A stretch of DNA of 64,000 bases from an uncultured Candidatus Saccharibacteria bacterium (GCA_963526965.1 CAURPS010000003.1:56303-120302), one strand, 5' to 3'; numbered from the stretch's first letter, positions 33,084-59,654 are shown. Made by a program: numbers and translations. Notes: generated by a model not told the origin, from the sequence alone.

Positions 33084-33111
33084 TTGCATATTCGCCATCT
33101 ATGCGTACAAT
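33084..33111 (+). promoter_or_regulatory. promoter of sucC-like gene, leaderless-type
   Basis: TTGCAT (33084-33089), 16 nt, TACAAT (33106-33111). The ATG at 33119 is 7 nt downstream. Confidence 0.45.
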
Positions 33112-33118
33112 AATACCT

Positions 33119-41222: not shown

Positions 41223-41283
41223 GTCGGTTTTTTCTTATACTAAAAGGAGTCATTGTATAACAAACAAGGAGTAGCAAAAGCCA

Positions 41284-42672: not shown

Positions 42673-42696
42673 GCCGTGTGTTTTTTTCGCGACGCC

Positions 42697-42950
42697 TGTG
42701 GAAAAGCCGTGTATAGTAAGCCGTATAACCAGCGGACAGCTCGTGGGCAGTCATCCACAGCACCAAGAGCGCACCGCCCTCCAGCCTTATTGGCTGGTGG
42801 ATAACCACCACTTCTCCCCGGCTTATCCACGCCAGCGATCGCAGCGTTTTGCACAAGTAGTGAGCAAGTCGTACCCCTGTTATTCATCATGGTTTCCACA
42901 GTATCCACAGCACCTATTACTATATCAACCATATAAAAGAAAGGATTGTA
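42697..42950. promoter_or_regulatory. DnaA-box cluster plus AT-rich stretch in the dnaA-dnaN intergenic region (oriC part 2)
   Basis: TGTGGAAAA 42697-42705, TCATCCACA 42751-42759, GGTGGATAA 42796-42804, TTATCCACG 42823-42831, GTTTCCACA 42892-42900, GTATCCACA 42901-42909. An AT-rich stretch ctattactatatcaaccatataaaagaaa follows. Confidence 0.7.
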
Positions 42951-42953
42951 GAT

Positions 42954-44054
42954 ATGAAACTGTCTGTCACACAAGAAAACCTTGCACGAGCGCTCGGGGT
43001 TGTCGGGCGAGTTGCGAGCAATCGAGCTGGCCTGCCGATCTTAAATAATATACTATTCCGCACCGAAGGTAATCGCCTTCTTCTCGCTGCGACGAACTTA
43101 GAGATTGCCGCTACCTATTATATTGGCGCAAAAGTAGAGACACCGGGGGTAATTACCCTGCCGGCTAAACTTGTGAGCGAATTTGTGGCGAATTTGCCGA
43201 AGGGGCCGATCGAGCTTGAGACCGATGGCGCGCGTATGACACTGACGTCTGGCGGGTACACTTCGACGATTAATGGCGTGGTAGCGGATGACTTTCCGGA
43301 GCTGCCGACGATTGATGAAGAACAATCGGTGCGCTATAGCATTGCCGCGGCGGACTTTAAGCAGGCGGCAGCGCAAACCTTGGTGACCTGTAGTAATGAT
43401 ACGACTCGGCCTGTCCTGACTGGCGTGTATTGGCACACAGTGGATGGTGCGCTGTATATGGCAGCGACGGATGGCTATCGCTTGGCTGAGCGGCGTTTGA
43501 TGGCAAGCCAGAGCCAGATTGCAGCCATTGTGCCAGCGAGCAGCCTGCAAGAAGTGCTGCGCTCGCTCAGTGACGGCACAGAAGAGGTGGAGGTGCTCTT
43601 TGACGAGACGCAGGTGCGCTTTCGGCTGGAGGAGGTAGAGATTACCAGCCGCTTAATTGATGGCACCTACCCAAATTATCGGCAGCTCATCCCTGCTCAG
43701 TCAGAGACAAATGTGATGCTGGCGGCACGCGATTTCTCACGCGTGGTAAAGGTGGCTGGGCTCTTTGCCCGGGAGTCTGGTGGCAGTGTCACGCTCACCG
43801 CTGACCATGAGGCGCAGAAATTGCGGATTCACTCCGTTGCGTCTGAGCTGGGCGAAAATACCTCCGAGGCAGAAGCTGAGGTGTCGAGTGATGGGCAAAT
43901 TACGCTCAATTCGCGGTACATTAGTGATGCACTAGGCGTTCTTGATGGTGAGACGATCACCTTCCGCTTTAGTGGCAAGCTCTCGCCCTGCGTCTTAACA
44001 GTCGCTCAGCCCGAGCCAAACTACATTCATATTATTATGCCACTGAAGAGCTAG
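42954..44054 (+). CDS. dnaN: DNA polymerase III beta sliding clamp
   Basis: 366 aa. MKLSVTQENLARAL ... YIHIIMPLKS is the typical DnaN N- and C-terminus. Confidence 0.95.
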   Translation: MKLSVTQENLARALGVVGRVASNRAGLPILNNILFRTEGNRLLLAATNLEIAATYYIGAKVETPGVITLPAKLVSEFVANLPKGPIELETDGARMTLTSGGYTSTINGVVADDFPELPTIDEEQSVRYSIAAADFKQAAAQTLVTCSNDTTRPVLTGVYWHTVDGALYMAATDGYRLAERRLMASQSQIAAIVPASSLQEVLRSLSDGTEEVEVLFDETQVRFRLEEVEITSRLIDGTYPNYRQLIPAQSETNVMLAARDFSRVVKVAGLFARESGGSVTLTADHEAQKLRIHSVASELGENTSEAEAEVSSDGQITLNSRYISDALGVLDGETITFRFSGKLSPCVLTVAQPEPNYIHIIMPLKS

Positions 44055-44056
44055 CG

Positions 44057-45055
44057 ATGAAGATAACACGGCTAGCAGTGCAGCATGTGCGAATCCATAC
44101 GCTCAAGACGCTTGACCTTGAGCCAGGCACAACGTTGATTTCTGGCCCAAATGGCTCTGGCAAGACATCACTTATCGAGGCGATCCATATTGCGCTGCGT
44201 GGTACCTCCTTTCGCGGTAGTGATGAATCGGTCTGTCAACATGAACAAAAAAATTATACAATCGATCTCGCGACGGATGAGCAACATTACCGCGTCCAGT
44301 ACGATCGCCGCCATGAGACGAAGCGCAAGCGTTTTATCGTTGATGGCACAACCTATGGTCGCCTTCCCTATGGCAAAAAATATCCGATCGTCCTCTTCGA
44401 GCCAGATACGCTGCGAATTATCACTGGCTCGCCGCAGCGTCGGCGCGATTTTCTTGATACACTCATCCAGCAATATGATGCACACTATAGCCACGAGCTG
44501 AGCCGCTACCACCGAGCACTACAACAACGCAATAAATTACTCAAAGACCCTACCCTCAGCGAGGCGGCACTTTTCTCGTGGAATCTTATCTTGAGTCAGT
44601 ATGGTGCGTCGATCATTGCCAAGCGCCAGCGGGTGCTACATTATCTTAGTGCAAAAAGCAGTGCTATGTACCAAAGTATTGCAGGCGTGGCGGATAGCGT
44701 TACGCTACACTACTCAGAGGAGCGCAGCATGACCGCGCAGCAACTCCTTGCCGAGTATGAGCAAAAAACGGCGTATGATACAGTGGTCGGCGCGACGAGT
44801 GTTGGGCCACACCGGCACGATATCACGGTGCTATTCCGAGGCAATCCGGCCGCCAAGACTGCATCCCGCGGTGAAATCCGCACCATTGTGCTCGCTCTCA
44901 AATTTCTCGAAGCAGCCTACATCCAGCAGCAAACAGGTCAAGCACCACTTATTCTACTCGACGATGTCTTTGGCGAGCTCGATCAGCAGCGCCAGCAGCG
45001 CCTCCTTAGCGAGTTCGTCGATAACCAGATCGTGATGACGAGTGCGGTGGGGTAG
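44057..45055 (+). CDS. recF: DNA replication and repair protein RecF
   Basis: 332 aa. Walker A GPNGSGKTS, SGGE-equivalent region ASRGEIRT, Walker B LILLDDV. Confidence 0.9.
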   Translation: MKITRLAVQHVRIHTLKTLDLEPGTTLISGPNGSGKTSLIEAIHIALRGTSFRGSDESVCQHEQKNYTIDLATDEQHYRVQYDRRHETKRKRFIVDGTTYGRLPYGKKYPIVLFEPDTLRIITGSPQRRRDFLDTLIQQYDAHYSHELSRYHRALQQRNKLLKDPTLSEAALFSWNLILSQYGASIIAKRQRVLHYLSAKSSAMYQSIAGVADSVTLHYSEERSMTAQQLLAEYEQKTAYDTVVGATSVGPHRHDITVLFRGNPAAKTASRGEIRTIVLALKFLEAAYIQQQTGQAPLILLDDVFGELDQQRQQRLLSEFVDNQIVMTSAVG

Positions 45056-45071
45056 GCTTCTAGGCTTCGCC

Positions 45072-45800
45072 TTATATATCAGTGTACATATAACACCATG
45101 GTGGGTTATTGCCGCCGCACGGAACAACACGCTTCTTTTCTAGCTCTTCGGCGGTGGGATATATTTTGCCATTGATTTTTATGTCGTATTTATCAATATC
45201 TTTGTCGTGTTTTTTAATATAGTTGAGGGCTTGGTCGACTTGCGATTGGCTCGTTTTGTCTGTTGTGACGATGCACACACCAAGCCGATTTGACCGGTCG
45301 GTCGTGCGGTATGGGTTGCAGGTAACAATATAAAACCAACGCGAGTAGTAAGGTAGTTTATTAATAAGAGGGCTCTCTTGAGATATCTTTGCTCCGCCTT
45401 GTGTTGCTTCGTGACCGCCGATTGCTTCGCGGATATCGTTGTATTTTTCCTTCTTCGCTTCTCTCTTTCCTTCCTCAGTTAGTGGATTCATGGCAAAGAA
45501 TAGCTTCTTTTCTTCGCCTGGCTTGAGGTCTAGCTTGACCTGGTGGTCGGCAAAGCCCTTAGCTCGGAATGTGTAGGTGTACGACCCGCTCTTTACGGCG
45601 TGCTTTGTCCGCGTTGTTACCTTTTGGTCTTTGATCGTATCATACGAGACAGTGAGGCTATCGGGGATAGCATAGACGAGGATAGTGCTATCGTATTTGA
45701 GATTATCAACAAAGCGATATATCGTAAAGGCAATCATGCCAACGGCAAGCAGGGCAAATAATGCGATAATTTGGTTACGTTTTTGATTGAGTATTTCCAT
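45072..45800 (-). CDS. membrane-anchored hypothetical protein (possible PEGA-like beta domain), last gene of the T4SS-like operon
   Basis: N-terminal TM IIALFALLAVGMIAFTIY. The beta-rich segment SGSYTYTFRAKGFADHQVKLDLKPGEEKK looks PEGA-like. Overlaps the upstream gene by 26 nt. Confidence 0.45.
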   Translation of the reverse strand: MEILNQKRNQIIALFALLAVGMIAFTIYRFVDNLKYDSTILVYAIPDSLTVSYDTIKDQKVTTRTKHAVKSGSYTYTFRAKGFADHQVKLDLKPGEEKKLFFAMNPLTEEGKREAKKEKYNDIREAIGGHEATQGGAKISQESPLINKLPYYSRWFYIVTCNPYRTTDRSNRLGVCIVTTDKTSQSQVDQALNYIKKHDKDIDKYDIKINGKIYPTAEELEKKRVVPCGGNNPPWCYMYTDI

Positions 45801-47163
45801 TGACTGTCCTCGCTAATACAACACCCGGGTTTCCAAGCATCCACTCGACTGTTCCTTGTTTAATGTAGGTTGGTGAGTAATCAAATTGCGATGCCTGTGC
45901 ACCAACAAATCCATTACCAAGGTCACCAGTATAGATAAGAGTATGACCTTGCCCATTATTATAAATTAGAATATCACCAGGTTGTAAGTCGGACATTCCA
46001 GGAGACTCTTTAGTATAGAATTTCTCTGGGTGGCTTAAGACATATGGGCGCTGAACTGCCGTTCCGGCTGGTGGATAATTCGGATCTGCCCCACTCATGC
46101 GCATCACTGTTGCAACGTATTTGCCGCAATCGGTGTAGTCACCACCCGCTTCTGGGTTATACTGCTGGCGGGCTTGTTTATACTCTGGTTTTGCACCATC
46201 ACTGTCGACATGTCGTCCATCCTCCCAGGCAAGACTCTTGGCCGTCTCGACGATTGATCCACCGGCGGCACTCTTGCTGCCGTTTGCGGTGCAGCCTGTG
46301 GCTGATGCATTTTGGGTGTTGGCGCCATTGTTATTGCCGCCTTCGACTTGGATTTGGGATGAAGGCGGAGATAAGTTCTCCTCTTTGACAATTTGCTCGA
46401 TCTTGTCGATATACTCAGTGACAGTCGAGACATACTGGCTGTCGGTCGCATAGCCAGCATTTTTGATCTCTTGGAGGTATTTGCGTGGGTCACCAGGGTA
46501 TTTGAGGGCTTCGCTATAGCGTGAGTTGCTGGTGATGAATTCGCCATAGCCAAGCCAGCCAGCCTCGACGGTAGGATATTTGCGGAAGCCATCGACGATT
46601 GTTGTTCGGCCAGAGGCGTATTCCTCCTCGGTCTCCATATCGATCACCTCACCCGACCAGTTCCCGCCAGCCTTGATACCATGGAAATTATTTGCCTTGA
46701 CGGTAAGTCCAGATTTGCCATAACCAGACTCAATAACCCCCTGAGCAAGAACTGTCTCGTATGGCGTGCCATACTTTTTGTTCGTTTCGACAGCCATCTT
46801 GACGTATTTGCGGACGAAGTCTTTGAGGTCTTCTGCCCCAGTGGCGCTACTACCATCGCTACTGCTGGTGCTGCTGGTAGAGCAGGTTGCTGCGTCGGGG
46901 TCGAAATGCTCGATATTGTTGCCAGAAAAGAACCCTGCATCTAGAGCTGAAGCAGGAGTTGATACGAGAGAAAACACTATCGCAAAAACAAGAGAGCTTA
47001 TTCGATAGATAGTTGTGCAGTGAGAAAAGAGTTGTGTTGATGGAGAAAAAAGAGACGAAAAGCGAAGCAGTTGTTGGTGGGTGTATATTTGGCAGCGAGT
47101 GACAAGCACACAAAGAGAGTAGAAACACTGAGCAAAAATAGCATGAGTCCACCGTATGATCAT
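45775..47163 (-). CDS. secreted two-domain peptidoglycan hydrolase: N-acetylglucosaminidase (FlgJ/LytD-type) + NlpC/P60- or CHAP-like cysteine peptidase
   Basis: YGTPYETVLAQGVIESGYGKSGLTVKANNFHGIKA is the glucosaminidase signature. The C-terminal DCGKYVATVM ... GDILIYNNGQGHTLIYTG gives a Cys...His papain-like pair. I chose the ATG at 47163 because of its ATGA overlap with the upstream stop; the start remains uncertain. Confidence 0.7.
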   Translation of the reverse strand: MIIRWTHAIFAQCFYSLCVLVTRCQIYTHQQLLRFSSLFSPSTQLFSHCTTIYRISSLVFAIVFSLVSTPASALDAGFFSGNNIEHFDPDAATCSTSSTSSSDGSSATGAEDLKDFVRKYVKMAVETNKKYGTPYETVLAQGVIESGYGKSGLTVKANNFHGIKAGGNWSGEVIDMETEEEYASGRTTIVDGFRKYPTVEAGWLGYGEFITSNSRYSEALKYPGDPRKYLQEIKNAGYATDSQYVSTVTEYIDKIEQIVKEENLSPPSSQIQVEGGNNNGANTQNASATGCTANGSKSAAGGSIVETAKSLAWEDGRHVDSDGAKPEYKQARQQYNPEAGGDYTDCGKYVATVMRMSGADPNYPPAGTAVQRPYVLSHPEKFYTKESPGMSDLQPGDILIYNNGQGHTLIYTGDLGNGFVGAQASQFDYSPTYIKQGTVEWMLGNPGVVLARTVNGNTQSKT

Positions 47164-50126
47164 GATGACCCTCCAACACGTCGAGCATACTCCCAGTGCC
47201 ATGCCTCTGGTTTGCTGCCATTTGGTTCGGCCCATTCGGGATGGACGTAGCCATATTTATGCGCATTGGCTTTGAGCCAATTGTATGTAGAAGAACCAAA
47301 GTCTCCCACACTAATATCTGCTGCAAGCCCCCAGCCATGGTTCGAACTACACGGTGGCGCTGGCTTGGCGAGGCCACCTTGGTATAGTGGGTCACCTGGT
47401 GTCGCGTATGCTATTTGCCGTTGGCAGTCTCGGTATGCTTCGTTAATACCGAAATCTGCACCAGTTTCTGCTTTGTATGCTTTGTTCATTTCTTCCATAG
47501 CGGCCGCAGCTTGCTTGTGCATCCTCTCGCCGGACGAAAATGACAGAGCTACCAAGTCGCCTTCTGCTAACTCGCCGTTTTTAAGGCCGTTCCATGTTGA
47601 TATAGAATCGCCACCTTCTGCAGCAGGCTGGGCTTGGTTAAATTCTGGCTCGCCAACTGCCGGGCCGCTGGGGGTACTGCTGCTAGATTGGCTTGCACCA
47701 CCTCCACCAGAGATCGGTTCATTGTCCATAGTGTCGACGACACGTTGGTCGATTGTGAAGAGTGCAGCATTGACTTTTTCCTCAGAGTCAAACTTGCAAT
47801 AAGCGGTGTCGACGCCATTCTCGCCATCAGTACCTTTGCCACACTTCTCTTGCCATTCTTTGAGCGTGCCGCCAGTTGCTTCGCCTGTTTCTTCGTTGTA
47901 TTGCCCAGCGAGAGATTGGGCAACCTCGTCAGGGTCTTTATCGAGATTGAGTGCACCATACGATATATTACAAAATGGCCCAGCAGCGACGTCTTTGGGG
48001 ATATTTGGGTCATCGCATGCTTGCCAAATTTTTTTCATGCGATCTGTCTCGGTATTAGCGCTGACTTTATTACCAAAGAAAGCCGGTACGATATTCTTAG
48101 GGAGAGACACAAGATTATGAACGAAACTACTAAGATTAGAAAAGCTACCCATATAGGGGATGAATGAACTGTAGAGACTTCCCATAAAGGTATATGGCGA
48201 CGTTGCGTCAAATGGACTCCGCTCAACGCGTTGCTCAGCAGCATAGGCAAGGTTGAGACGAGCTGTTTCTCGTTCGTAGGCGATTGTTTGGTCGACATTG
48301 AGCATACCGTTGCCACCCGCCGCTGCTGCTTCAGAGAACATATTTACTGCACCACTCGTGAGGGCATCTCCAGCATCTTCACCAACAGTAGCACTACTCA
48401 CAAGAGTGCCCGCCATAGAATTTATGAGCTTACTGAGGATTGGCGCAAGCACAGCAGAAATAACAGGAGCAGCTAAGTTTGAAACCAATTCACCGACGAC
48501 GCTTGTCCATCCACCAACGACACTCATGAGGAGCTGACCGCCAGTGCTGTTGATGGCTGTGCAGGATGTCTTTAGTGCGCTAATATTAGCTCCAAGGGCA
48601 TTGGCAACGCCGCTCATCTTCCGAGCCCACCCTCCGCCAGGGACGTACTCCGTCCAATTGGAGGTACCAGTTGGGGCTATCTCTTTCATTAGGCCATATT
48701 TAAGACCCATTCCGTCGGTTGCGGCCTTTTTGGTCACGTTGCCAGATTTGTTGACAAGTACAGTAGTAAGAATCGTCCCAAGTACAGCAACAGCCATATA
48801 GTCTGTTGAACCGGCCTTAATATTATCTGCCATTGTAAAGAACATCATGGCATAGCTAATAACCTGTGTCATTTGGATGAGGCGAATCGTCTTGCTAATA
48901 GACTGAGCACCATCTTGTACCATACAGAGGCCGCCAGCAATCATGGCGACGATATTGCCAGTCTTGCCAACGCCATTTTTGATAATATTGGCTGCTGCTT
49001 CTTTGCTGATAGATTTTGTTGCTCCTTCGGCACCTTCACTTACTGCTTCTTTTGCGGCTTTGCCAACATCAGTGTCTTCAGTAACCTTTTCTTTGCCTTC
49101 ATTGTCATTTTCCTTGGCTTCGTATCTGCCATTCATTTCTTTGCCTTTGGTATTTTTGTCGATGCTTTCGCGGACTTCTTTCTCACTTTTGGCGCCAGCC
49201 AGCTTGTTTTTCTTGGTGAGGGAGAATTTTTTTATGACGCCATTATTAAATACTTTGTCGAAGAAAGCGACCCAGCGCGGTGCATATGCGCGGTGCATAA
49301 TTGCTCTGAGCTCAGGCTTCTCATAATATAATTTTTTGAAATCTTTGGCGCTGATTGTTTCCTGAGTCCCATTAGGGTAAGTGACGCGCAGATTCTCGAT
49401 TTTTTCACCGATTGTGGACTTTTTCGCATCAAACCCATCGGAAGCTTTGACGATATTCCCTTCCTTGTCGAGGGCTTCAACATTATTTTTTTCAAATTGC
49501 TTTAGCAGCCGATTCGAAACACGATTATAGCGGCATCGTACATTCACAACCGAACAAAGGCCATCGGTTGCAGTGTTTTGGATACGCTTAAACATCACCT
49601 TATTAGCGCGTCGTTCGAAGCTGGTATTTTGTGAATTCCAGTGGTTGGTGAGATTTTCTTTAATATGAAGCAAAAGTAGACTTGGCCCACCAAAAAACGA
49701 GATCATTGAGCCACCGCCAAGCAAAATAGCGCCAAGGATTCCCATTGGCCCACCCTTCTTAGAGAATATCGCACTCCGCGCTTTGGCAAAGCGAGATTTG
49801 GGCTCAGAGAGTTTACTGTCTGGCGGGACTACCTTGTTGAACCAGTTATTATCGCTCCAGTTGCTTCCTGGCGCGCCCTCCTGGCCTCGGACGGAGTTGG
49901 CGTAGTCGCTGCCAGTTGCGCCAGTGCTGCTGGTGTTGCTATGGGCGGATGAACCACTCCCGCTGTTCTCGCGCGACTGGAGGTCTTGGGCGGTGTTGGA
50001 TTGGCTGTAATCACCACTGCCAGCGTGATTATTCCGGCCGGCGAAGGTGTCGTTGCTCCAATGCGTATTTCCCGGATTGTGCCGGTCGAGATCGGGTTTT
50101 TGCTGAGAGGGAATGGGGGTAGGCAT
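47160..50126 (-). CDS. 988-aa membrane protein with a C-terminal VanY/M15B-type D-Ala-D-Ala carboxypeptidase-like domain
   Basis: S/G/N-rich N-terminus, TM GILGAILLGGGSMISFFGGPSLLLL, and further hydrophobic segments mid-protein. The C-terminus has NEAYRDCQRQ, SNHGWGLAADIS, WLKANAHKYGYVHP and EAWHWEY. Confidence 0.7.
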   Translation of the reverse strand: MPTPIPSQQKPDLDRHNPGNTHWSNDTFAGRNNHAGSGDYSQSNTAQDLQSRENSGSGSSAHSNTSSTGATGSDYANSVRGQEGAPGSNWSDNNWFNKVVPPDSKLSEPKSRFAKARSAIFSKKGGPMGILGAILLGGGSMISFFGGPSLLLLHIKENLTNHWNSQNTSFERRANKVMFKRIQNTATDGLCSVVNVRCRYNRVSNRLLKQFEKNNVEALDKEGNIVKASDGFDAKKSTIGEKIENLRVTYPNGTQETISAKDFKKLYYEKPELRAIMHRAYAPRWVAFFDKVFNNGVIKKFSLTKKNKLAGAKSEKEVRESIDKNTKGKEMNGRYEAKENDNEGKEKVTEDTDVGKAAKEAVSEGAEGATKSISKEAAANIIKNGVGKTGNIVAMIAGGLCMVQDGAQSISKTIRLIQMTQVISYAMMFFTMADNIKAGSTDYMAVAVLGTILTTVLVNKSGNVTKKAATDGMGLKYGLMKEIAPTGTSNWTEYVPGGGWARKMSGVANALGANISALKTSCTAINSTGGQLLMSVVGGWTSVVGELVSNLAAPVISAVLAPILSKLINSMAGTLVSSATVGEDAGDALTSGAVNMFSEAAAAGGNGMLNVDQTIAYERETARLNLAYAAEQRVERSPFDATSPYTFMGSLYSSFIPYMGSFSNLSSFVHNLVSLPKNIVPAFFGNKVSANTETDRMKKIWQACDDPNIPKDVAAGPFCNISYGALNLDKDPDEVAQSLAGQYNEETGEATGGTLKEWQEKCGKGTDGENGVDTAYCKFDSEEKVNAALFTIDQRVVDTMDNEPISGGGGASQSSSSTPSGPAVGEPEFNQAQPAAEGGDSISTWNGLKNGELAEGDLVALSFSSGERMHKQAAAAMEEMNKAYKAETGADFGINEAYRDCQRQIAYATPGDPLYQGGLAKPAPPCSSNHGWGLAADISVGDFGSSTYNWLKANAHKYGYVHPEWAEPNGSKPEAWHWEYARRVGGSS

Positions 50127-50132
50127 GGTGGG

Positions 50133-51968
50133 CTACGACCTCACTGGCTGCTGATATAAGCTGTTATTGGCCACCGGGTTGGTAGTGATGAATTGCGTCT
50201 CGGTCTCGCTGGCGAAGATGCGGATATGGACGTGGTTTTGCCCCGCAAAGAAGAGCCCATCGCCCACAGGGAAGTTAGATAGACGCTTACGCTCTTCCTC
50301 GGTGAGTTTAAAGACCTCAGCGAGCACATCCACCGCGCTGGTCGATTGCTTTAGCAAGAGCTGGAGCGAACTGTTTGCCACAATGGCCCGGCCCTTCTCA
50401 CTCCCCATAAAGTCCTCCACATCCTGTGTAATAGTCGTCAGCCCCAGAGAATACTTACGAGCTCGCTTGGCTAGGCTATGGAGAAACTCCGCCGAGTCTT
50501 CGTACTTCATCAGCTGCCAAGCCTCATCGACGATCAGCATCCGCCGGCGCTGCACGGTGCGAGCGATATTCCAGATGTGGCTCAGCACAATATACATTGC
50601 CACTGGCCGTAGGTCATCCTCGAGATCGCGGATATTAAACACCACCATGCTGTTATTAATATCAACATTGCTCTGCTGGCTAAAGATACCAGCAAAAGTA
50701 CCTGTGGTGTATTTGCGCAGGCGCTGGGCTAGCGATGGCCCTGCCCCACCCATGTGAAGGAGGGTGTCGTAGAGGTCGATGATCGTCGGTGGCTGAGAAT
50801 TATGCGTTAGTGGGTCGCTGGTGATGCCAGCCCGAGCGTAGGTATCGATGAGCGCTTGATCGAGATCGGCCTCTTCAGCTGGGCTGAGCAAGGCAATCTG
50901 TTGCCCACCCACCAACGTGCCGCCCAACATGAGCTTGAAGAGCCGCTGCAGGGTGATGAGATTGGCGCGCAGGGCATCAGTTGCTTCGTCGCTGTCGATT
51001 ACTCGGGGAAGGTCGAAGGGGTTAATTCGCGTATCGCTACTGAGGCTGAGGCGAATGTAACTGCCGCCGACTGCGTCAGCTAGCTTCTGATACTCGTTCT
51101 CAGGGTCGATGACAAGGATGTCGGTGCCAAGCATCATACTGCGCAGTGCTTCGAGCTTAACGGTAAAGGATTTACCAGCACCAGACTTTGCAAAGACGAC
51201 CATATTCGCGTTCTCAAGGCTAAAGCGGTCGAAAATAACGAGCCCTTGGTTGTGCTGGTTCACACCATAGAGAATCCCCTCGCCGTCACTGAGGTCGGCA
51301 CTGGTAAAGGGAAAGCTCGTGCTCACCGCACCAGTGTTCATGTTGCGGCGGACTTGCAGCTGGTCGGTCATTTGGGGGATGGTACTGTTGAGGCCTTGCT
51401 CTTGTTGGTTACTGGCAGTTTTGCTGTAGACCATATTTTGGCCAAAGATTGTCTCGATAACATGCTGAACGAAGCTCAGCTCCTCGAGGCTATCGGCATA
51501 AAGCGTGACGTAAAGCCCAAAACGGAAGAAACGCTCAGCCCCAAGCTGTAGCTGGTCGCGCAGCTCCTCGGCATCGGCCAGAGCGGCTTCGCGGGCTGGG
51601 TCACGCACCTTGCCTTTTTCGGAATTAAGCGCCATATCGGCCTCAAGCTGCGTCACCTTCTTGCGGAGGTTATTAAGGACGATCTCTGTCTCGACGGGGT
51701 AGATAAACATGCTAATATCGAGCACTTGGTCGATGTTGATCAACCCTGACAACCAGCCTGTGTAGAGCTCACGTGGGTAGCCATAGATGTAGAGTGTGCG
51801 GCCATACTTGGTACCAATGCGGAAGTATGTGCTGTGAATCTCGAGGCTGCTGGGCGCGATTAGGTCGCGCAGCGTCGTCATCCCCTTGATAAAGGCTTCT
51901 TCTACCTCTGCTTGCTCGCGCTCGCGCTGCTGGGCAGCAATGTCGATTGGATCGGGTCGTCGTGCCAT
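50133..51968 (-). CDS. virB4: VirB4/TraE-class type IV secretion ATPase (monoderm type)
   Basis: 611 aa. N-terminal LIAPSSLEIHSTYFRIGTKYGRTLYIYGYPRELYTGWL, Walker A KSGAGKSF, Walker B MLIVDEAW. Confidence 0.85.
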   Translation of the reverse strand: MARRPDPIDIAAQQREREQAEVEEAFIKGMTTLRDLIAPSSLEIHSTYFRIGTKYGRTLYIYGYPRELYTGWLSGLINIDQVLDISMFIYPVETEIVLNNLRKKVTQLEADMALNSEKGKVRDPAREAALADAEELRDQLQLGAERFFRFGLYVTLYADSLEELSFVQHVIETIFGQNMVYSKTASNQQEQGLNSTIPQMTDQLQVRRNMNTGAVSTSFPFTSADLSDGEGILYGVNQHNQGLVIFDRFSLENANMVVFAKSGAGKSFTVKLEALRSMMLGTDILVIDPENEYQKLADAVGGSYIRLSLSSDTRINPFDLPRVIDSDEATDALRANLITLQRLFKLMLGGTLVGGQQIALLSPAEEADLDQALIDTYARAGITSDPLTHNSQPPTIIDLYDTLLHMGGAGPSLAQRLRKYTTGTFAGIFSQQSNVDINNSMVVFNIRDLEDDLRPVAMYIVLSHIWNIARTVQRRRMLIVDEAWQLMKYEDSAEFLHSLAKRARKYSLGLTTITQDVEDFMGSEKGRAIVANSSLQLLLKQSTSAVDVLAEVFKLTEEERKRLSNFPVGDGLFFAGQNHVHIRIFASETETQFITTNPVANNSLYQQPVRS

Positions 51969-52927
51969 TAAAAATCTCCTTTGTGATATGCTGTCGAGGT
52001 TGGGACGGCTCCCTCACCCTTGCGGACGAAGGTGGAAGTCACGTTATTAAAGTCGCCCAGTGGCTCGCGCACCGCCGTGTCGGGGTTGTACATGTTGTAA
52101 TAGAGGGTACCGAGCTCTTTAGTCTTGAGCTGCACTGCCCGCACACCAATCTGCATCAAGCCATTAAGGATGGTGTCAGCGCGGTTGCGGATCTCCTCGC
52201 GGGCTCGCTCGTAGGTTTCTTTGCTGATCTTCGTCACAGTGTTGGTATTCTTAGGGGCGAAGAGCTTGGTGAAGAACCCTTTACTCTGGTCGAGAATCGT
52301 CCCCTCCCCTGCTGGGTAATACGGGATGACGACGTAGAAACTCTTGTCCATGATGTTGGCGTTTTGTGAGAGGTCGTCGATGAAGTTGATATAGTCTTCC
52401 ATCAGCACGCTGAGCAGCATGTTGTCTTGGGTGCGCTGGATGGCGACGAGCTTGTCGAGGTATGGGCCAATATCCACCCGCTGCGAGCGGATGCAGATCT
52501 GCACTGGGAAGTACAGCGCATTGAGGAAGTTCTGGTAGCTATACTCTACCCCCTCGCGCTCACGAGCGCTCATGAGGTCGAAGTTAATCGACTCACAGGC
52601 AATGACGGCGCGGAAGCTCCCATCACCCATGATGATCATATCATCGCGCAATTCCGAGAGGAGGAGGCTATTCTGTGTGGTAGCGGGTTTGGGTGGAGCC
52701 TTTTTCTTGGTGTCTTGAGTAGGCTGATCATTCGTATTACCTTGCACAGCTGGTGGCTGAGCCGGTGCTTGCACGGCGGGGTAATTGCCCTGTGGCGGAG
52801 CAGGATATTGCGGGTAATTAGCTGGCACCTGGCCAGCTGGCGCAGCGCCCTGGCCTTGGCTATAGCCAAACTGGCTGACTGGCCCAGCTGGTGGTTGTTG
52901 ATTGTTGGGTGAATTTGGCGACACCAC
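51968..52927 (-). CDS. hypothetical T4SS-associated protein (P/Q-rich N-terminus plus about 230-aa globular part)
   Basis: GTG start directly after AAGGAGA. Its stop overlaps the virB4 ATG (TAATG). I recognised no catalytic motif. Confidence 0.5.
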   Translation of the reverse strand: MVSPNSPNNQQPPAGPVSQFGYSQGQGAAPAGQVPANYPQYPAPPQGNYPAVQAPAQPPAVQGNTNDQPTQDTKKKAPPKPATTQNSLLLSELRDDMIIMGDGSFRAVIACESINFDLMSAREREGVEYSYQNFLNALYFPVQICIRSQRVDIGPYLDKLVAIQRTQDNMLLSVLMEDYINFIDDLSQNANIMDKSFYVVIPYYPAGEGTILDQSKGFFTKLFAPKNTNTVTKISKETYERAREEIRNRADTILNGLMQIGVRAVQLKTKELGTLYYNMYNPDTAVREPLGDFNNVTSTFVRKGEGAVPTSTAYHKGDF

Positions 52928-52942
52928 TCTCCTTCTTATTTC

Positions 52943-54811
52943 TTAGCGCAAAGGGATGACAATCTCATCATCGTCATCATCCTGACTAGCCTGCTCTTGA
53001 TGTTGAATCCGATTGGCTTCATTGGCAATGGCAGCAACGGACAAATCAGAGTTGCTGGCTAGTCTAATTATATCAGGCGAGACGGTGTTTGTGCTAGTGT
53101 TTGGCGGCAGATTGTTGCGTTGCTGGGCGAGCTGCTCCTCCCGCAGACGTTCCTCGCGCGTGGGGGTTGTCTTGGCGTAATAACTGGGGTCGAGCGGCTG
53201 GATGACCGACTGATGAATGCTGGGGTATGGGTTGTAGCGCACCGCCATATCGATGACATTTTTGTCATCAGCCAGTGCTGAGCGATCTCGGTAGGATACT
53301 GCGGCTGGGGTGGGTGCAAGAGCTGGTGCGGCTTGAACTGGTGCAACGGGTGGCTGCTGAGGTGGTGCTGGCTGGTAGGTAGGCTGCTGGGGAGGATACG
53401 ACACAGGGGTTTGCGGATAATTGGAGGCTGCTGGCGGGGTTGGTTGCTCTGCAGGTACTGGGGTGGATGATGGTTGAGTGTCAGTAGGATGCGCTTCAGC
53501 TGGTGGGTTGCTGGGCGTAGTTGTTGTGTGCGTGGCTGACTTTTGGGGTGGTACAAGCGGCACAGCATCGGTGATGGGAGTGGCGTGCTGGCGCAGGTTG
53601 GCATAGATCGCCTCAAAGGATGGTGTCTCCTCTGGCTTGGGCTCTGGCGCAGCTTCTGCTGTAGGTTCAGGCGGTGTGTAGGGCTTACTCAGGGCGTCTG
53701 GCAAGACCGAATCGTGCGGAATAACGGCGGGCAGTGCCATTGGCAGAGACTGGAGTGAGTCATGCTTTTGCGGCATGGGCTGTGGCTCAGTAACAGGCGT
53801 TTCGTCATGCGCCGCATCATCCACTGGCGAAATCTCGTATACCTCGGTAGGTTGCTGAGGTGGGTATGGGTTTGGTTGGTTTTGGTAGGCGCTAGCATCG
53901 GGCGAGGGAGCTTGCTGATGCGACGACGCCGTACGATTCTCCGGGAAGCTCGTGGACGAATACGACACCGCTGGGCGCTGAGGCTCTGGTGCTGAGTATG
54001 GCGACTCAGGCATGCGAGGCTGAGCTGGCGACACTGGCGCAAAGCCAGCGGCATCAACGGGTGGCTGATACGGAGGTGTAGCCTGTGGTGGGATAGTTGG
54101 AGCTGGCTGCGGTGCTGCCTGGTATGGTTGCGGCTGGGCCTGTGGCCAGGCTGGCTGATACGGCACCGGGGCTTGCTGGAGTGGCTGCCCATCAGCTACG
54201 GCAGGCAGCGCAGCCGCTGGGGCTTGCATGCGCTCGATGGCGGCTCGGCGCCGGGCTTGGTTGGATTGCTCAATGCGCCGCGTCATCGCCCGTGCTTCGC
54301 TGCTGTTATCATCAAACATATCCGAGGTCTGCTGCGCCTCGAAGTAGACATCGCTAATCATCGACCCCTGTGCGTCGGGCACACGAGTATGGCGGATAGA
54401 CCAGCCATGGCTATCAGCCAGCTGCGACAGGTATGCTAGGCGGCGCTCGGCCTCGTCTTGGCTGAGGTTCTTTGTTCGCTCAATCTCCACCTTCTCAGGT
54501 ACCGTAATTTCGATGAGTGAGCTGATGCCATCGGGCTGCCACATACGCCGGCGTGGCTTGGTGTAGAATGATATCACCGCCGCGAGGTAAACCTCCATTG
54601 GCTGATCCTTACGTAGTGGCAAAGCTAAGGCACCAAACAGCAGAATAATCGGCACCGGAATAACCGCCAGTGGCAAAAACACTTGCGACAGCCCCCACGC
54701 TAGCGCAATCCCCGCCGCCGCAACCAGCAAATAAATAAACTGGCGAAAGCTAAACGGCCCAAGAATCTTATCCTCTGCCTCTACATCCTGCGCAACCTTA
54801 TATCTCGACAT
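52943..54811 (-). CDS. PrgI/VirB3-like membrane protein fused to about 450 aa of P/Q/A-rich low complexity
   Basis: N-terminal MSRYKVAQDVEAEDKILGPFSFRQFIYLLVAAAGIALAWGL followed by a second TM, as in PrgI-family proteins. Most of the remainder is a proline/glutamine-rich tract. Confidence 0.6.
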   Translation of the reverse strand: MSRYKVAQDVEAEDKILGPFSFRQFIYLLVAAAGIALAWGLSQVFLPLAVIPVPIILLFGALALPLRKDQPMEVYLAAVISFYTKPRRRMWQPDGISSLIEITVPEKVEIERTKNLSQDEAERRLAYLSQLADSHGWSIRHTRVPDAQGSMISDVYFEAQQTSDMFDDNSSEARAMTRRIEQSNQARRRAAIERMQAPAAALPAVADGQPLQQAPVPYQPAWPQAQPQPYQAAPQPAPTIPPQATPPYQPPVDAAGFAPVSPAQPRMPESPYSAPEPQRPAVSYSSTSFPENRTASSHQQAPSPDASAYQNQPNPYPPQQPTEVYEISPVDDAAHDETPVTEPQPMPQKHDSLQSLPMALPAVIPHDSVLPDALSKPYTPPEPTAEAAPEPKPEETPSFEAIYANLRQHATPITDAVPLVPPQKSATHTTTTPSNPPAEAHPTDTQPSSTPVPAEQPTPPAASNYPQTPVSYPPQQPTYQPAPPQQPPVAPVQAAPALAPTPAAVSYRDRSALADDKNVIDMAVRYNPYPSIHQSVIQPLDPSYYAKTTPTREERLREEQLAQQRNNLPPNTSTNTVSPDIIRLASNSDLSVAAIANEANRIQHQEQASQDDDDDEIVIPLR

Positions 54812-54874
54812 AGTTTATGTATTTATTATAGCATGAGGGGGATGAAGTCTCTCTTACTACCATCAAATATTTTA

Positions 54875-57800
54875 TTAAAACTTGCCGCGAGACCAGTTAT
54901 CGACAGTATCTTTGATGCTCTGACGACTACGAATTTCATTTTTGACCTGTTTATCTTTAAGGGCGAGTCGTGCAGATTCTTGTAGCCTTTGTTGAGCTTG
55001 CTTCAGTTCTTGAGCACCCACTCGAGGGCCGGGCTGTGCTAAAGCATCATTGATAATCTTTGTAGATGCTTGATCCATGTTTGCAATTTCTTCAGGTTTA
55101 CCAAACTTCTCTTTATTAATAGATCTAACGATAGATTGCTGAAGATCAAAATTACCATCCTTTATATCATTGTAGGCCCCACCATCAAACCAGCCATGTT
55201 TTTTTGCACCACTTGATGCACTAAGAGCTGAAGCAAGAGCCAATCGTTCACCTTCGCTCTCAAGGCTATTGGCAAGTTCTGCAAGTTGCACAAACTGCTG
55301 GGCATTCGCAGATCGTCCAGCCCTATCTAGGACATATCTTCTCTCGGAAGTTGTTTGTGGCAGAGGGATGCTTGTAATTACATTTCCTGCACTATCTGTT
55401 GGTTTTATATTTGGTTTTACTAGACCTCTAGCCATGTCAACAAATTGGCCGTTCCCAAGGCGGGTTTCCTTGCCAGTCCCACTATCTATAAATGAGACAT
55501 CACTCTCATACATAGTTTTTGCTTTCTTTATAGACTCGTCATACCGTTTCTCTTCTTGCCAAGATGCTTCTTTACCGAGATCCTCTATCATGCGTTTAGC
55601 GGCTTCATTATTAAACTTATTTGCTCCCACTTCAATAACTCTATTAGCTTTTCCAGATACCCAACTCCGTGCAGCTCTACCCCAAGTAGTAGGATTTTTT
55701 GTACCCTTATAAGTTCCAGCCTGTATTTGTGCACGTCTTTCTGCCTTTACCTGATCACGATAGTCCATATATTTGCCCCATTTGGATTCATTGAGCATCT
55801 TTTGTGATTTTTTGCCTACCGCATTGCCAGCCATTTGTCCCCACTTATCGGCAATATTTGCTAACCCCATCATTGAGGTCATGAGGCTTGTTAGGCGAGA
55901 AACTAAGAGGAGTGGCGTGAAGGTAAGCGCAGCAGCAATAATCTGTAATAACACCTCTGATTCGCCCTTCATGCCATTAATGACCGTTGCCCCCAGATTA
56001 CACGCACCATAGAGCAAGCCAACTGCAGGGTAGAGAAATAGCAATGTCTTGAAGAAACCCCACCATTTCTTGAATAATCCTTCTGTACTTGGCAATAGCA
56101 GGGCTACAAAGGCAAGTGGAGACAAGATAATAGTAAAGATAACCAAGGCATGCCGCGCCCCGAGAAGGAATACTGTAACAGTTGCAGTAACAGCAATGAA
56201 GATAAGACCAGAAATAAGCGCGCCAAGGGCAAAGAAGCCAACGGTGCCAGCAAGAACAGCAGCAGCAATTCCTCCTAGCGCATTACCCTTTGTTGCCCAG
56301 CCACCCTCTGGGCCGCTCCCGCCACCACCAAGTGAGCTGATGAAATTGAACGATGATGACCCGACAATATTTGATATATCGACAAGAATGCTACATATAT
56401 AGAAAGATATATTGACGAGGACGATAGTCATAAGAAGCTTGGGTAGAAGTTTCTTAATACCATAATTGCTAATACCAAGACCGCTAACCTGCGAGTAGAT
56501 AATAATCAAGAAAACGATAACAAAGACGATATTGGCAATATCCCGAATACGTGACCAATAGTGGAAGGCCGAATCAGGACCACGGTTAGTTAAGATAAAT
56601 GAGTTGACTTCAAGCAGTTTGGCTAAAATACCTGCAGAGTCGTCTGAGATGTCGGCAAGGAAGTTAACGACAGGGCAAACAACCCAGCCAACACCATCGA
56701 TGGCACAGCGTGATTTGGATTCTTCTTCACCATCCTCAGGCGTGTCGTGAGCACCCTCACCACCCCCTATGTCAATGTCTCCTGCCTTTGCTGCGTCTGC
56801 CGCCTTCTTTGTATCAACACCGTTAAGAATGTCTTTGATCTCTTTTTCTGTCAGATTTGGCCATTTTTCATGCATACATTTGCTAATGTATTCTTTTTTG
56901 TATGTGTTGATATCTTTTTCTTTACTAGATTTCCCGCGCGTTACTACAGCCTCTGTAACATAGGATTTCGTAGCATTTGCAATACAAACCGCAACAGATT
57001 TTTCCCAACCATTATCATTACATTTCGATTGGTCTGCCGCACATGCCTTATTTTTTAGAGAAGACAACGCTGATGCAAGGCTGTCGTCAACTGCCTTTGC
57101 TGAGGCGTTTTTCTTGGCGTTATCTATTGCCTTGCTTGCTTGCGCTGTAACTCTTTTTGATTTATCGATACAGAATTTTTTGTCTTCTTCTGTCTTAGAA
57201 TGATTACCCGCTGTTACAGTTATGTCTGGAGCTTTGTACTTTGCTATAACTTGCTGTACTATATCACTGTTGCCGTCTTTTCCAATCCTGCTATATGATA
57301 TATAGCCATCTTCTGCTTTGTCTGCAAGAGTGATTTGAGAACTATTAAGCTCTGATCGATTTTTCTCATCCTTGACGGAACACGTGCTGACAAAATCCTT
57401 ATAATAATACGTGTATATCTCACCAGGTTTTAAATACTCCTCTATATTATTATCATTAATTTTTAACTTACTACGAATTGCTGCGTTGACAGGGCCTTGC
57501 CGACCTTTTGTTGCTTCCCATGTTCTATTGCTATTGTTCTTCTTATAACCAGCTGCGGTCAAAAAATCTTCAGCGCCCGAAAACCCCCATTTTAAGATAC
57601 CTTCTTCATAAATGGCAGCACATGACATTTTTTTGCCTAGGACAAAGCGCTCTTTACTAAAACCATTTCCGCCAAGACCATTAGTTTTGACATCTCTAAA
57701 GTCAATACTGTCAATCCCGTCAAAACACCCAGCATGAGATGTGCCACTCTCCCCGTCTTGCGCCTCAAAGAGAGCCCATTTTCGAATCTTCTCATCATGA

Positions 57801-57910
57801 TCATCAGCATAAGCCTTTTGGTCTATAAACACACTAGAACTAAGTACAAGAATAATAGCTAATGGAAAGAGTGAAAAGCGCTTTAGCTTAGATACAAGAG
57901 AGTTTGTCAT
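54875..57910 (-). CDS. 1011-aa polytopic protein, VirB6/TrbL-like T4SS channel component with a large Cys-containing ectodomain
   Basis: Signal peptide, a roughly 400-aa extracytoplasmic domain, about 7 TM segments (aa ~430-690), and a roughly 320-aa hydrophilic C-terminus. The assignment rests on topology and context. Confidence 0.55.
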   Translation of the reverse strand: MTNSLVSKLKRFSLFPLAIILVLSSSVFIDQKAYADDHDEKIRKWALFEAQDGESGTSHAGCFDGIDSIDFRDVKTNGLGGNGFSKERFVLGKKMSCAAIYEEGILKWGFSGAEDFLTAAGYKKNNSNRTWEATKGRQGPVNAAIRSKLKINDNNIEEYLKPGEIYTYYYKDFVSTCSVKDEKNRSELNSSQITLADKAEDGYISYSRIGKDGNSDIVQQVIAKYKAPDITVTAGNHSKTEEDKKFCIDKSKRVTAQASKAIDNAKKNASAKAVDDSLASALSSLKNKACAADQSKCNDNGWEKSVAVCIANATKSYVTEAVVTRGKSSKEKDINTYKKEYISKCMHEKWPNLTEKEIKDILNGVDTKKAADAAKAGDIDIGGGEGAHDTPEDGEEESKSRCAIDGVGWVVCPVVNFLADISDDSAGILAKLLEVNSFILTNRGPDSAFHYWSRIRDIANIVFVIVFLIIIYSQVSGLGISNYGIKKLLPKLLMTIVLVNISFYICSILVDISNIVGSSSFNFISSLGGGGSGPEGGWATKGNALGGIAAAVLAGTVGFFALGALISGLIFIAVTATVTVFLLGARHALVIFTIILSPLAFVALLLPSTEGLFKKWWGFFKTLLFLYPAVGLLYGACNLGATVINGMKGESEVLLQIIAAALTFTPLLLVSRLTSLMTSMMGLANIADKWGQMAGNAVGKKSQKMLNESKWGKYMDYRDQVKAERRAQIQAGTYKGTKNPTTWGRAARSWVSGKANRVIEVGANKFNNEAAKRMIEDLGKEASWQEEKRYDESIKKAKTMYESDVSFIDSGTGKETRLGNGQFVDMARGLVKPNIKPTDSAGNVITSIPLPQTTSERRYVLDRAGRSANAQQFVQLAELANSLESEGERLALASALSASSGAKKHGWFDGGAYNDIKDGNFDLQQSIVRSINKEKFGKPEEIANMDQASTKIINDALAQPGPRVGAQELKQAQQRLQESARLALKDKQVKNEIRSRQSIKDTVDNWSRGKF

Positions 57911-58004
57911 ACACTACATATAATACACAAAAATAAGTAAGAAAACCAGCCAAATAACATAAGTAGTGTATGGTATTTGGCTGGCCTGGATGAAAGCTAG
58001 ATTT

Positions 58005-59129
58005 TTAGCCTTCTTTGATATCGTTGAGAGGCGCGGTAACCCTTGGTTTGATCGCGCGAGCTTTATAGTCGTTTTCGTTTGTTGGATAAAAATAAGATAC
58101 ACGGGGGAATGAATGTACTGTGTAGTGGTTTGTGTTTCGATCTTTTTCGGTTATCTGCCTTTGGGTCTCAAGAGCGACACGGTATGATTCTCCATTTTCG
58201 TTTTCTACCTCTTGTACTTCGCAATATGCTGCCGAATATACCTGGGGTTGATTGGTTTCTTTGCCGTCGTTGATCGGGAATGGGTCTTCGTATTCTGCCA
58301 TGATCGCACATTTCGTAACGCGGAGAGCAATGCGGTCTTCTTTTTCTGGTTTTTTGCCTTTCGTATGAGCTTCATAGGCGGCTTCAACAAGGCGGCCATA
58401 ATAACCGTGGGGTTTTGATTGATTTTTATCGCCGCCATCTTTACTTTCATCATTGGAATCTCTAACAATGTTAGAATGTGGGACGTCTATATAGTCTGCC
58501 AAACACCGCAGCACTGGCCATGCATCGACTTCTCTACCCTCTGCATTTGTGAATAAAGCATTTGACTGAGCATCATCACAGAGATCACGGAAAAGTCGAT
58601 CAACATTATCAAACCACGTAATTGCCAACTCTTTTGACTGGTCAGCACGTGATTCGGTAAGAATTGTCATGACCTCTGGTTTTAGGTTATTACCAAAGAG
58701 GGTTTTACACGCAAGCCCTTTGTCATAATCACTCATTGTTTTCCACTTTTCAGAGTCAAACTCACTAAGATTCGCGAAGTTATACGACCGGCGAGGTTCG
58801 GGCCGCTCATTGCTTGGTGCGCCAGGCTCCACAGGCTCTTGTGTAGGTGATGAAGTTTCTGTCGCTGTGGCAGATGGGGTTGCTTCTGGGCTCGAGCTTG
58901 GAGATTCTGATGGAGAGGGTGTTTCTAAAGCTGTATTATTGTTCTTGGCCGAACCACGACCAGCTAAGAACGCTATACTTGCTGCAGCAGCGGCACCAAC
59001 GCCAAGAACACCAAAGAAAGTTCGTCGGTCAACAACTCTTTCTCGTTCGCTATCTTCATGAGAGACTGTATTGCCTAACGCTTCAGGCTCGCTAGCGTTT
59101 GTCGGATAACCATTGTATTTGTCTGTCAT
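58005..59129 (-). CDS. secreted hypothetical protein with a twin-arginine-like signal, first gene of the T4SS-like operon
   Basis: VVDRRTFFGVLGVGAAAAASIAFLAG followed by an S/P/T/E-rich linker. I preferred the ATG at 59129 (GGGGAGGA 9 nt upstream) over the TTG at 59138 in the track. Confidence 0.55.
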   Translation of the reverse strand: MTDKYNGYPTNASEPEALGNTVSHEDSERERVVDRRTFFGVLGVGAAAAASIAFLAGRGSAKNNNTALETPSPSESPSSSPEATPSATATETSSPTQEPVEPGAPSNERPEPRRSYNFANLSEFDSEKWKTMSDYDKGLACKTLFGNNLKPEVMTILTESRADQSKELAITWFDNVDRLFRDLCDDAQSNALFTNAEGREVDAWPVLRCLADYIDVPHSNIVRDSNDESKDGGDKNQSKPHGYYGRLVEAAYEAHTKGKKPEKEDRIALRVTKCAIMAEYEDPFPINDGKETNQPQVYSAAYCEVQEVENENGESYRVALETQRQITEKDRNTNHYTVHSFPRVSYFYPTNENDYKARAIKPRVTAPLNDIKEG

Positions 59130-59525
59130 AAGCTTCAATCCTCCCCAATACAGGATTAGTGGTTATGTGTGCTATTATTATGCGCACTTGCGTTTCATGC
59201 TACCATTGTTTGCGCGGCAGGTCAAATATTTTTTGGCCTCTGTTGAGGAAAATGAATGACGAATACACACAGAGGTTAGTATAGAAATATATTCGAACGA
59301 TATTTTTTGGCAAAAATGGGAGATATTTTATACATATTGCATGATGGAGAAATATGATGGCTCGAATATAGGAAGTTAATCCTCATCTATGCAGATATGA
59401 TGGTACCCCGTCCCTATTATTGAAAAAATATAGCCACACAAATTAACAATATACCTAATAAATACTCTGATAAGCTACATAATTTACACGAATAAACCAC
59501 TATATATCCGAATCACTCATACATA

Positions 59526-59564: not shown

Positions 59565-59654
59565 GGAGAGGTGCAAGAGTGGTTGAATTGGCACGCCTGG
59601 AACGCGTGTGTGGCGGCAACGTCACCCAGGGTTCGAATCCCTGTCTCTCCGCCA
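59565..59654 (+). tRNA. tRNA-Ser (anticodon GGA), class II with long variable arm, CCA encoded
   Basis: Acceptor GGAGAGG/TCTCTCC, anticodon stem CACGC/GCGTG with loop CTGGAAC, variable arm GTGGCG-gcaa-CGTCAC, T arm CAGGG-TTCGAAT-CCCTG. Confidence 0.9.

Follow-up and report, generated by a model that had tools for sequence, protein, structure and literature searches.

An origin-proximal type IV secretion locus, probably serving host interaction, in an oral Saccharibacteria genome

We analysed a 64,000-nt stretch of DNA (the window) from the genome of an uncultured, human-oral Candidatus Saccharibacteria bacterium, which carries a type IV secretion system (T4SS) locus of eight genes beside dnaA-dnaN-recF. 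The original prediction, made on the same DNA, had placed eight co-directional minus-strand genes at 45072-59129. All eight open reading frames (ORFs) are present there, and three junctions that it had described as tightly coupled can be read directly off the sequence: an ATGA at 47160-47163, a TAATG at 51966-51970 and a 26-nt overlap at 45775-45800. The other intergenic gaps measure 6, 15, 63 and 94 nt. The observation is real and the system is already known; below we describe the genes (Table 1), their conservation and the readings that they allow.

Table 1. Features of the T4SS locus and its surroundings, in window coordinates (SEML1 numbers refer to genes of Candidatus Southlakia epibionticum ML1)
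Feature	Position	Strand	Basis or remark
Bipartite DnaA-box region flanking dnaA, likely oriC	41098-42909		Four boxes at 41098-41222, five at 42697-42909
dnaA-dnaN-recF	41284-45055	+	Pfam matches; convergent with the T4SS operon
Gene 8, 242 aa, predicted N-terminally anchored/exported PEGA-domain protein	45072-45800	-	Counterpart of SEML1_0005
Gene 7, 462 aa, predicted secreted GH73 glucosaminidase	45775-47163	-	VirB1-like; counterpart of SEML1_0006
Gene 6, 988 aa, VanY-type D,D-peptidase protein	47160-50126	-	Counterpart of SEML1_0007
Gene 5, 611 aa, VirB4 ATPase without an N-terminal domain of its own	50133-51968	-	NF045971
Gene 4, 319 aa, TrsD family	51968-52927	-	Stand-alone homologue of the VirB4 N-terminal domain
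Gene 3, 622 aa, PrgI/VirB3-like	52943-54811	-	PF12666
Gene 2, 1011 aa, VirB6/TrbL-family polytopic protein	54875-57910	-	PF04610 at family level
Terminator-like hairpin and U-run between genes 1 and 2	57946-57984	-	dG -21.7 kcal/mol, z -4.6
Gene 1, 374 aa, RR-type signal/anchor protein	58005-59129	-	Counterpart of SEML1_0012
Conserved promoter/5' region of the locus	59124-59336	-	Also the left recombination anchor of a variable cassette
tRNA-Ser(GGA)	59565-59654	+	ARAGORN

Genes 3 to 5 encode the putative motor. The VirB4-class ATPase expected in gene 5 was recovered with the NCBIfam CD1110-family model NF045971 at 380.9 bits (cutoff 325; profile positions 173-732 of 752), with Walker A GAGKS at residues 263-267 (51168-51182) and Walker B LIVDEAW at residues 478-484 (50517-50537), and PDB sequences matched by the same protein include 4ag5 (E 5.6e-50) and TrwK (E 1.6e-4). 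Metagenome-assembled genomes of human-oral Candidatus Saccharibacteria encode proteins with 100% identity to it, and identity across the class is 77-85%, in line with the earlier suggestion of an epibiotic small-genome bacterium. The earlier call of a monoderm-type T4SS is also supported, and the locus is of a type derived from MPF-FATA (mating-pair formation, FATA).

The 319-aa product of gene 4, previously listed as having no known identity, belongs to the TrsD family of VirB4 N-terminal-domain homologues. The protein matches NCBIfam TrsD at E 5.3e-5 and positions 19-185 of VirB4_CagE at E 0.0026, and its family consensus matches positions 91-255 of the 894 in VirB4_plasma (E 2.6e-8) as well as TrsD (E 1.1e-5), all of these scores lying under the curated cutoffs; a TrsD profile search of PDB sequences returned nothing informative. 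In a comparison set of 80 species-level Saccharibacteria loci (L001-L080), the family adjoins virB4 in 75. Gene 5 spans VirB4_plasma positions 282-893, so that the two genes tile one full-length VirB4 model, and the stop codon of gene 4 overlaps the start of virB4 in the TAATG junction. The motor is a VirB4 in two parts, TrsD supplying the N-terminal domain and the 611-aa protein the ATPase, with translational coupling between the two genes.

Gene 3 is the PrgI/VirB3-like gene that had been predicted, scoring 48.1 bits against PF12666 (cutoff 27) over residues 5-90. The match covers a hairpin of two transmembrane (TM) segments, which is followed by a Pro/Gln-rich linker of ~450 aa and a C-terminal motif of ~45 aa (SPDII.LA.N.DLS...EA.RI...E.VISLR/H). 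The motif is conserved class-wide and the linker varies in length; it is this linker that accounts for a GC-skew spike (+0.2) and a GC peak at 52-55 kb.

The VirB6/TrbL assignment of gene 2 holds at the level of its family. The protein itself matches no Pfam family, 9 of 35 homologues match TrbL/VirB6 (PF04610; best E 1.6e-5), and the TM core of the family consensus reaches E 8.6e-6 and 26.1 bits against a cutoff of 25.9; a search of PDB sequences with the VirB6-like family profile gave nothing informative. The product is made up of a signal peptide, a Cys-rich hypervariable ectodomain (~30-385), the TM core (~387-740) and a charged C-terminal tail, and the invariant columns of the family are confined to residues 402-628. 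The GC content at third codon positions (GC3) of gene 2 is 0.35. Searching 1.84 billion cluster representatives with the 356-aa ectodomain yielded seven relatives, two of them with E<1e-10. In a 1563-aa protein from a public collection (P0092), nine separate stretches match ectodomain residues 144-193 at 37% identity, which suggests that a module of the ectodomain may derive from repeats.

The cell-wall hydrolases predicted at the end of the locus are found in genes 6 and 7. Gene 6 encodes a disordered N-terminus, a single TM segment (~127-150), a conserved Cys-containing module of ~650 aa and, at residues 867-981, a VanY domain (PF02557, 47.8 bits); its family is present in 73 of the 80 loci. 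The C-terminus of this protein (47160-47760) is interchangeable across the comparison set, where VanY, M23, M15-like, C39-like and CHAP/NlpC-P60 types occur. Among 47 family members, the C-terminal domain was VanY in 17, M23 in 12, Exo_endo_phos (EEP) in four, C39_2 in three and CHAP in one, the endonuclease/exonuclease/phosphatase tails belonging to four long members. We considered the family as polymorphic toxins on account of these variable C-termini and downgraded the idea: nearly all tails are peptidoglycan peptidases, no immunity-like partner was identified, and the variable tails resemble modular hydrolases of the VirB1/PrgK type.

The glucosaminidase domain of gene 7 scores 98.7 bits against PF01832, and a CHAP/NlpC-P60-like domain at its C-terminus is weakly matched (CHAP E 0.015, under cutoff). 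Members of this family occur in 64 of the 80 loci. The length of 462 aa assumes a start within the ATGA overlap, and the true start is uncertain because the N-terminal ~50 residues are poorly conserved. For gene 8, the family consensus matches the PEGA domain (PF08308) at E 1.1e-7 and 32.1 bits (cutoff 20.8), with the family found in 43 loci and as two paralogues in some.

Gene 1 had been called a Tat-signal (twin-arginine translocation) protein, a description that finds no clear support. Its product has an RR motif (DRRTFFG) with a hydrophobic stretch, then a linker rich in S, P and T and an alpha/beta domain. The RR is shared by 13 of 19 family members. The Pfam TAT_signal model (PF10518), however, does not match the window copy and reaches a single relative only at E 0.0036. 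Relatives combine the RR with an LAGC lipobox, which in the window copy reads LAGR, the lipobox Cys having been lost. Neither tatA nor tatC lies in the 64-kb window. An AlphaFold2 (AF2) model predicts a folded region at residues 107-374 with helices packed on a beta-sheet (mean pLDDT, the predicted local distance difference test score, 65). Foldseek with this model found nothing at E<0.8 and VirB8/TraM/NTF2 folds only at E ~6-7, and matches of the family profile to PDB sequences were limited to lipoprotein signal regions. The 78 homologues collected, all at least 40% identical, carry no informative names.

A terminator-like hairpin lies between genes 1 and 2. Its stem is 18 bp long and none of 200 shuffled sequences folds as well. 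Eight sister genomes (L001-L007 and L009) are ~91-93% identical to the window in flanking DNA, and the hairpin is kept in three of them (L002, L003 and L006), one change in L003 repairing the sole mismatch. Four genomes show 100% identity over the 60 nt on its 3' side and the first ~20 codons of gene 2, also where identity in the remainder of the gene is only 50%. The hairpin separates gene 1 from genes 2-8, and what was originally predicted as a single operon may therefore comprise two transcription units of one and seven genes. This placement fits the published finding, described below, that the counterpart of gene 1 is the sole non-essential member in S. epibionticum.

Upstream of gene 1, the conserved 5' region contains two promoter-like, sigma-70-like matches (59313-59286 and 59225-59197), and a Shine-Dalgarno sequence, GGGGAGGA, precedes the ATG at 59129. 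The block is 91-96% identical in L001, L005 and L009 despite replacement of the gene downstream of it. Beyond it lies tRNA-Ser(GGA), whose 3' end is directed away from the operon. This tRNA has a long variable arm and an encoded CCA, and it is not listed in an Rfam gathering-threshold scan.

On its other side the locus meets the presumptive origin of replication. Minus-strand yidC, jag/khpB and rnpA precede plus-strand dnaA-dnaN-recF, the window contains 30 DnaA-box matches where 13 are expected, and the minimum of the cumulative GC skew falls at the DnaA-box region; the two clusters of boxes around dnaA suggest a bipartite oriC. Given the strand of dnaA-dnaN-recF and the positions of the boxes, the operon is transcribed head-on to the rightward fork, as had been predicted. 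That prediction also held the orientation to be unusual, which it is not here, because only 40% of coding bases in the window and 47% in its left replichore are co-oriented with replication, so that the window has no strand bias.

The head-on arrangement is moreover ancestral. Of the species-level loci, 59 reach 9 kb or more downstream, and in 56 of these dnaA/dnaN/recF are convergent with the operon. The order VirB6-PrgI-TrsD-VirB4-988-aa protein is kept by 52 of 77 loci, of which 30 have a single VirB6-like gene and 22 have two. Direct repeats resembling att sites, looked for on both flanks together with an integrase as signs of an integrative and conjugative element (ICE), gave chance-level short matches only. 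The same place and orientation in relatives, with neither an integrase nor att repeats, show that the locus is an ancestral core-genome feature, and the claim that it had been inserted next to the origin does not hold.

A published counterpart occupies the same slot in S. epibionticum ML1, where the locus begins after recF (SEML1_0003; PMC10633639, Wang 2023 supplementary gene tables). The genes there encode a PEGA protein (SEML1_0005), a lysozyme/GH73 and Cys proteinase (0006), a 1113-aa protein with a DD-peptidase C-terminus (0007), VirB4 (0008), a 293-aa protein (0009), PrgI (0010), two proteins with a fold-based TrbL/VirB6-like annotation (0011 and 0013), a TAT-signal protein with an NTF2/VirB8-like domain (0012) and pilins (0014-0019), with tRNA-Ser at 0022 (PMC10633639). 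By transposon sequencing, the listed T4SS genes are essential for growth on the host, 0012 excepted (PMC10633639).

Judged by gene families and their order, the window locus corresponds gene for gene to SEML1_0005-0013. Like SEML1_0004-0019, it is convergent with dnaA-dnaN-recF and has tRNA-Ser beyond it, and the two share PEGA, GH73 with Cys-peptidase, a DD-peptidase protein of ~1000-1100 aa, VirB4, a TrsD-like protein of ~290-320 aa, PrgI, VirB6-like and TAT-signal genes. The window differs in having one VirB6-like gene, not two, and in lacking the six-gene pilin array, the Hsp20 and comFC-like genes and a counterpart of SEML1_0004. Its PrgI linker is ~450 aa long as against ~100-200 aa elsewhere, and its RR-signal protein is without the lipobox Cys of its relatives.

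The class to which the locus belongs was described in 2020 (PMC7427843). A phylum-wide 2025 analysis characterises it as relaxase-less, MPF-FATA-derived and close to dnaA (PMC12102498), Quinonero-Coronel 2025 derives it, as relaxase-less and ori-proximal, from the conjugation machinery of monoderms, and a 2025 T4SS review also covers it (PMC12857230). For the orthologous locus, the literature concludes, as the original prediction did for this one, that it is a host-interaction machine and not a conjugation system (PMC10633639, PMC12102498, PMC12857230).

We determined the constraint on the locus from the sister genomes, which differ from the window at ~8% of nucleotides. VirB4 shows no amino-acid change in seven of the eight, and in L007 its nonsynonymous divergence (dN) is 0.0007; the ratio of nonsynonymous to synonymous divergence (dN/dS) was run on six pairs (dS 0.31-0.42), L004 and L009 being 100% identical by blastp. 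The corresponding dN/dS for dnaA is 0.004-0.043, and within the same loci VirB4 is under tighter constraint than either DnaA or DnaN. For the remaining operon genes, gene 7 lying outside these figures, dN/dS is 0.02-0.25, with gene 1 reaching up to 0.42.

All eight sister genomes are collinear with the window over the block 50058-54844 (PrgI-TrsD-VirB4), and on either side of this block lies a cassette. The left one (54845-59124) holds the RR-signal protein and the VirB6-like protein with its orphan ectodomain; the right one (45051-50058) holds the 988-aa peptidase protein, the GH73/CHAP hydrolase and the PEGA protein, and is anchored at the 3' end of recF with a breakpoint at 45051. Both have been swapped in several sisters for alleles whose proteins share 30-60% identity and whose dS is saturated, and the breakpoints fall at gene borders. 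We count at least six allele classes of the VirB6-like gene and three of the 988-aa gene, which assort independently of each other. L002 carries the alleles of the window at a dS below background, which suggests recent exchange. GC3 is 0.35-0.50 in the cassette genes versus 0.57-0.67 in the core genes. It is possible that the locus is built as an invariant motor with two exchangeable cassettes, and that the cassettes set host range or 'serotype', with hydrolases matched to the wall of the host and not to the cell's own. We regard this architecture as a modest addition that deserves a population-level check.

Could the locus serve conjugation or another form of DNA transfer, its coupling protein, relaxase and origin of transfer (oriT) being encoded elsewhere on the chromosome? 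The family to which its VirB4 belongs, CD1110, is conjugative, the DNA examined amounts to 64 kb of the genome, and homologues of VirD4, the type IV coupling protein (T4CP), are frequent in Patescibacteria and usually lie far from virB4 (PMC12102498). Against this, no more than 103 Patescibacteria genomes have yielded relaxases, and in S. epibionticum the T4SS is essential whereas the T4CP is not (PMC12102498). The locus is fixed in the core genome of 56 of 59 species and has neither an integrase nor att sites. The sizeable ORFs scanned across the window contain no domain of a T4CP, relaxase or integrase, in agreement with the original prediction, with relaxases sought as domains in those ORFs and oriT not searched for. 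In none of the 80 relatives do the 10 kb on either side of virB4 encode a T4CP-like P-loop protein of 400 aa or more. We consider conjugation highly improbable.

A pilus or adhesion apparatus, in which a VirB2-type fibre would mediate attachment and nothing would be translocated, is likewise a poor fit. In its favour, other Saccharibacteria carry divergently transcribed arrays of PF18895 pilins, reported as essential, adjoining virB6, and tubular structures have been reported at a Patescibacteria-host interface. The window, however, holds no VirB2-like pilin by TM-pattern scan, tblastn or a purpose-built hidden Markov model (HMM). This HMM, built from relatives, gives 106 matches in 29 of their loci but none in a six-frame scan of the window (best E 0.018) and none in L001-L009, the nine closest genomes, over +-10 kb. 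In L005, the alternative cassette holds an ORF for a 158-aa polytopic protein that was examined as a candidate pilin and had no Pfam pilin match. The original prediction was therefore right that no pilin lies in the window; a locus without one is atypical for Saccharibacteria, a modest addition to the known system. The motor is nonetheless under extreme constraint, and adhesion in Saccharibacteria is ascribed to type IV pili (PMC12857230, PMC10633639).

That the locus is a decaying, functionless remnant of an ancient integrated conjugative element, as missing relaxase, T4CP and adhesin modules and several orphan genes might suggest, is effectively refuted by the selection and synteny data: eight intact ORFs, a VirB4 dN of 0-0.0007 over eight sister genomes, a dN/dS of 0.02-0.25 in the other genes (gene 1 up to 0.42), class-wide conservation and orthologues that are essential.

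Among the closest known T4SSs are also the MPF-FATA machines of Firmicutes, for which we considered pCF10 Prg/Pcf, pIP501 Tra, pGO1 Trs and the CTn2/Tn916-type ICEs. Common to these and the window are a CD1110-type VirB4, PrgI/VirB3, TrsD (in the pGO1 subclass), a VirB6/PrgH-like channel and a modular wall hydrolase anchored in the membrane, comparable to PrgK, TraG and CwlT, with no outer-membrane parts. The window locus departs from them in having no T4CP, relaxase or LPxTG adhesin, in belonging to the chromosomal core genome and not to a mobile element, in the large ectodomain of its VirB6-like protein and in the 650-aa module of its peptidase protein.

Bordetella Ptl and Brucella VirB, which have no dedicated coupling protein, resemble the window in that no T4CP is encoded with the machine, and the putative partners of the window system would, like those of Ptl, first leave the cell through Sec or Tat. 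Helicobacter ComB and archaeal Ced import DNA, and import is a live option for the window system; its VirB4 matches CedB weakly (E 3.3e-11, far below cutoff). Unlike the window system, Ptl, VirB and ComB are diderm machines with VirB7/9/10, and Ced is archaeal. To our knowledge none of these four is essential for viability. The Xanthomonas X-T4SS is, as is presumed for the window system, an interbacterial contact-dependent T4SS with peptidoglycan-degrading proteins; it differs in being diderm and in relying on VirD4 and on XVIPCD-tagged effectors that have immunity proteins, and no such components were found in the window.

Taken as a whole, the locus is very probably a vertically inherited, core-genome Saccharibacteria T4SS, a relaxase-less descendant of MPF-FATA systems that acts at the epibiont-host interface and not in plasmid or ICE transfer. 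The non-motor products named here, namely the RR-signal protein, the 988-aa D,D-peptidase protein, the GH73 and CHAP-like hydrolase and the PEGA protein, are predicted to be exported or anchored on the outside. We infer that hexamers of VirB4/TrsD would dock on PrgI and the TM core of VirB6, that the hydrolases would open the epibiont's own wall and probably that of the host, and that the VirB6 ectodomain and the 988-aa protein would form the outward part that contacts the host, the outcome being a cell-to-cell conduit.

As to what might pass through such a conduit, the literature proposes protein export or uptake of host macromolecules (PMC10633639, PMC12857230, PMC12102498). Export of proteins or effectors is a quite conceivable role for the window system, import of host macromolecules a more tentative one, and some other cargo seems unlikely.

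Several points weigh against assigning the locus to host interaction in this way. An effect of the hydrolases on the wall of the host is an inference. Without a pilin array, which is essential in S. epibionticum, the machine may differ from its published counterpart, or its pilins may be encoded elsewhere. A distal T4CP elsewhere in the genome is likely, because such homologues are common in Patescibacteria (PMC12102498), and a relaxase outside the 64-kb window is possible. At the level of individual proteins, the VirB8-like (NTF2-fold) assignment of gene 1 is inconclusive from its structural model, that of gene 2 to VirB6 is borderline by HMM and made at the family level, and the ~650-aa module of the 988-aa protein has no assigned fold, an AF2 model from a 10-sequence alignment having proved unusable (mean pLDDT 33.7).

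Elsewhere in the window, a cluster of ~35 kb for cell-wall polysaccharide and rhamnose (3294-38400) includes a Wzy-like protein, Wzt/Wzm ABC export, RmlD-like reductases, DUF2142 and many glycosyltransferases of families GT2, GT4 and GT8, with SucC/SucD-like genes embedded at 33101-35037. Within its span, at 23811-26117 on the plus strand, lies a gene for a 768-aa secreted protein with seven ChW (clostridial hydrophobic W) repeats, preceded by one for a 201-aa anchored protein that matches no family. At the window edge a DUF4238 protein gene (22-975, plus strand) adjoins tRNA-Asn, and a 133-aa protein encoded at 2935-3336 (minus strand) consists of a LexA DNA-binding domain only. GC content is low at 1-2000 (0.415) and at 16-19 kb (0.44).

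This T4SS is a leading candidate for the means by which ultrasmall epibionts tap their hosts, as the literature has established, and the window adds no new kind of system. We know of no other T4SS that is essential for the survival of its bearer. What is new here is a sharper picture of its evolution, in which an ATPase whose protein sequence is frozen lies between exchangeable cassettes for the exported parts. If these cassettes track host specificity, allele swaps in genetically tractable Saccharibacteria could test host choice.

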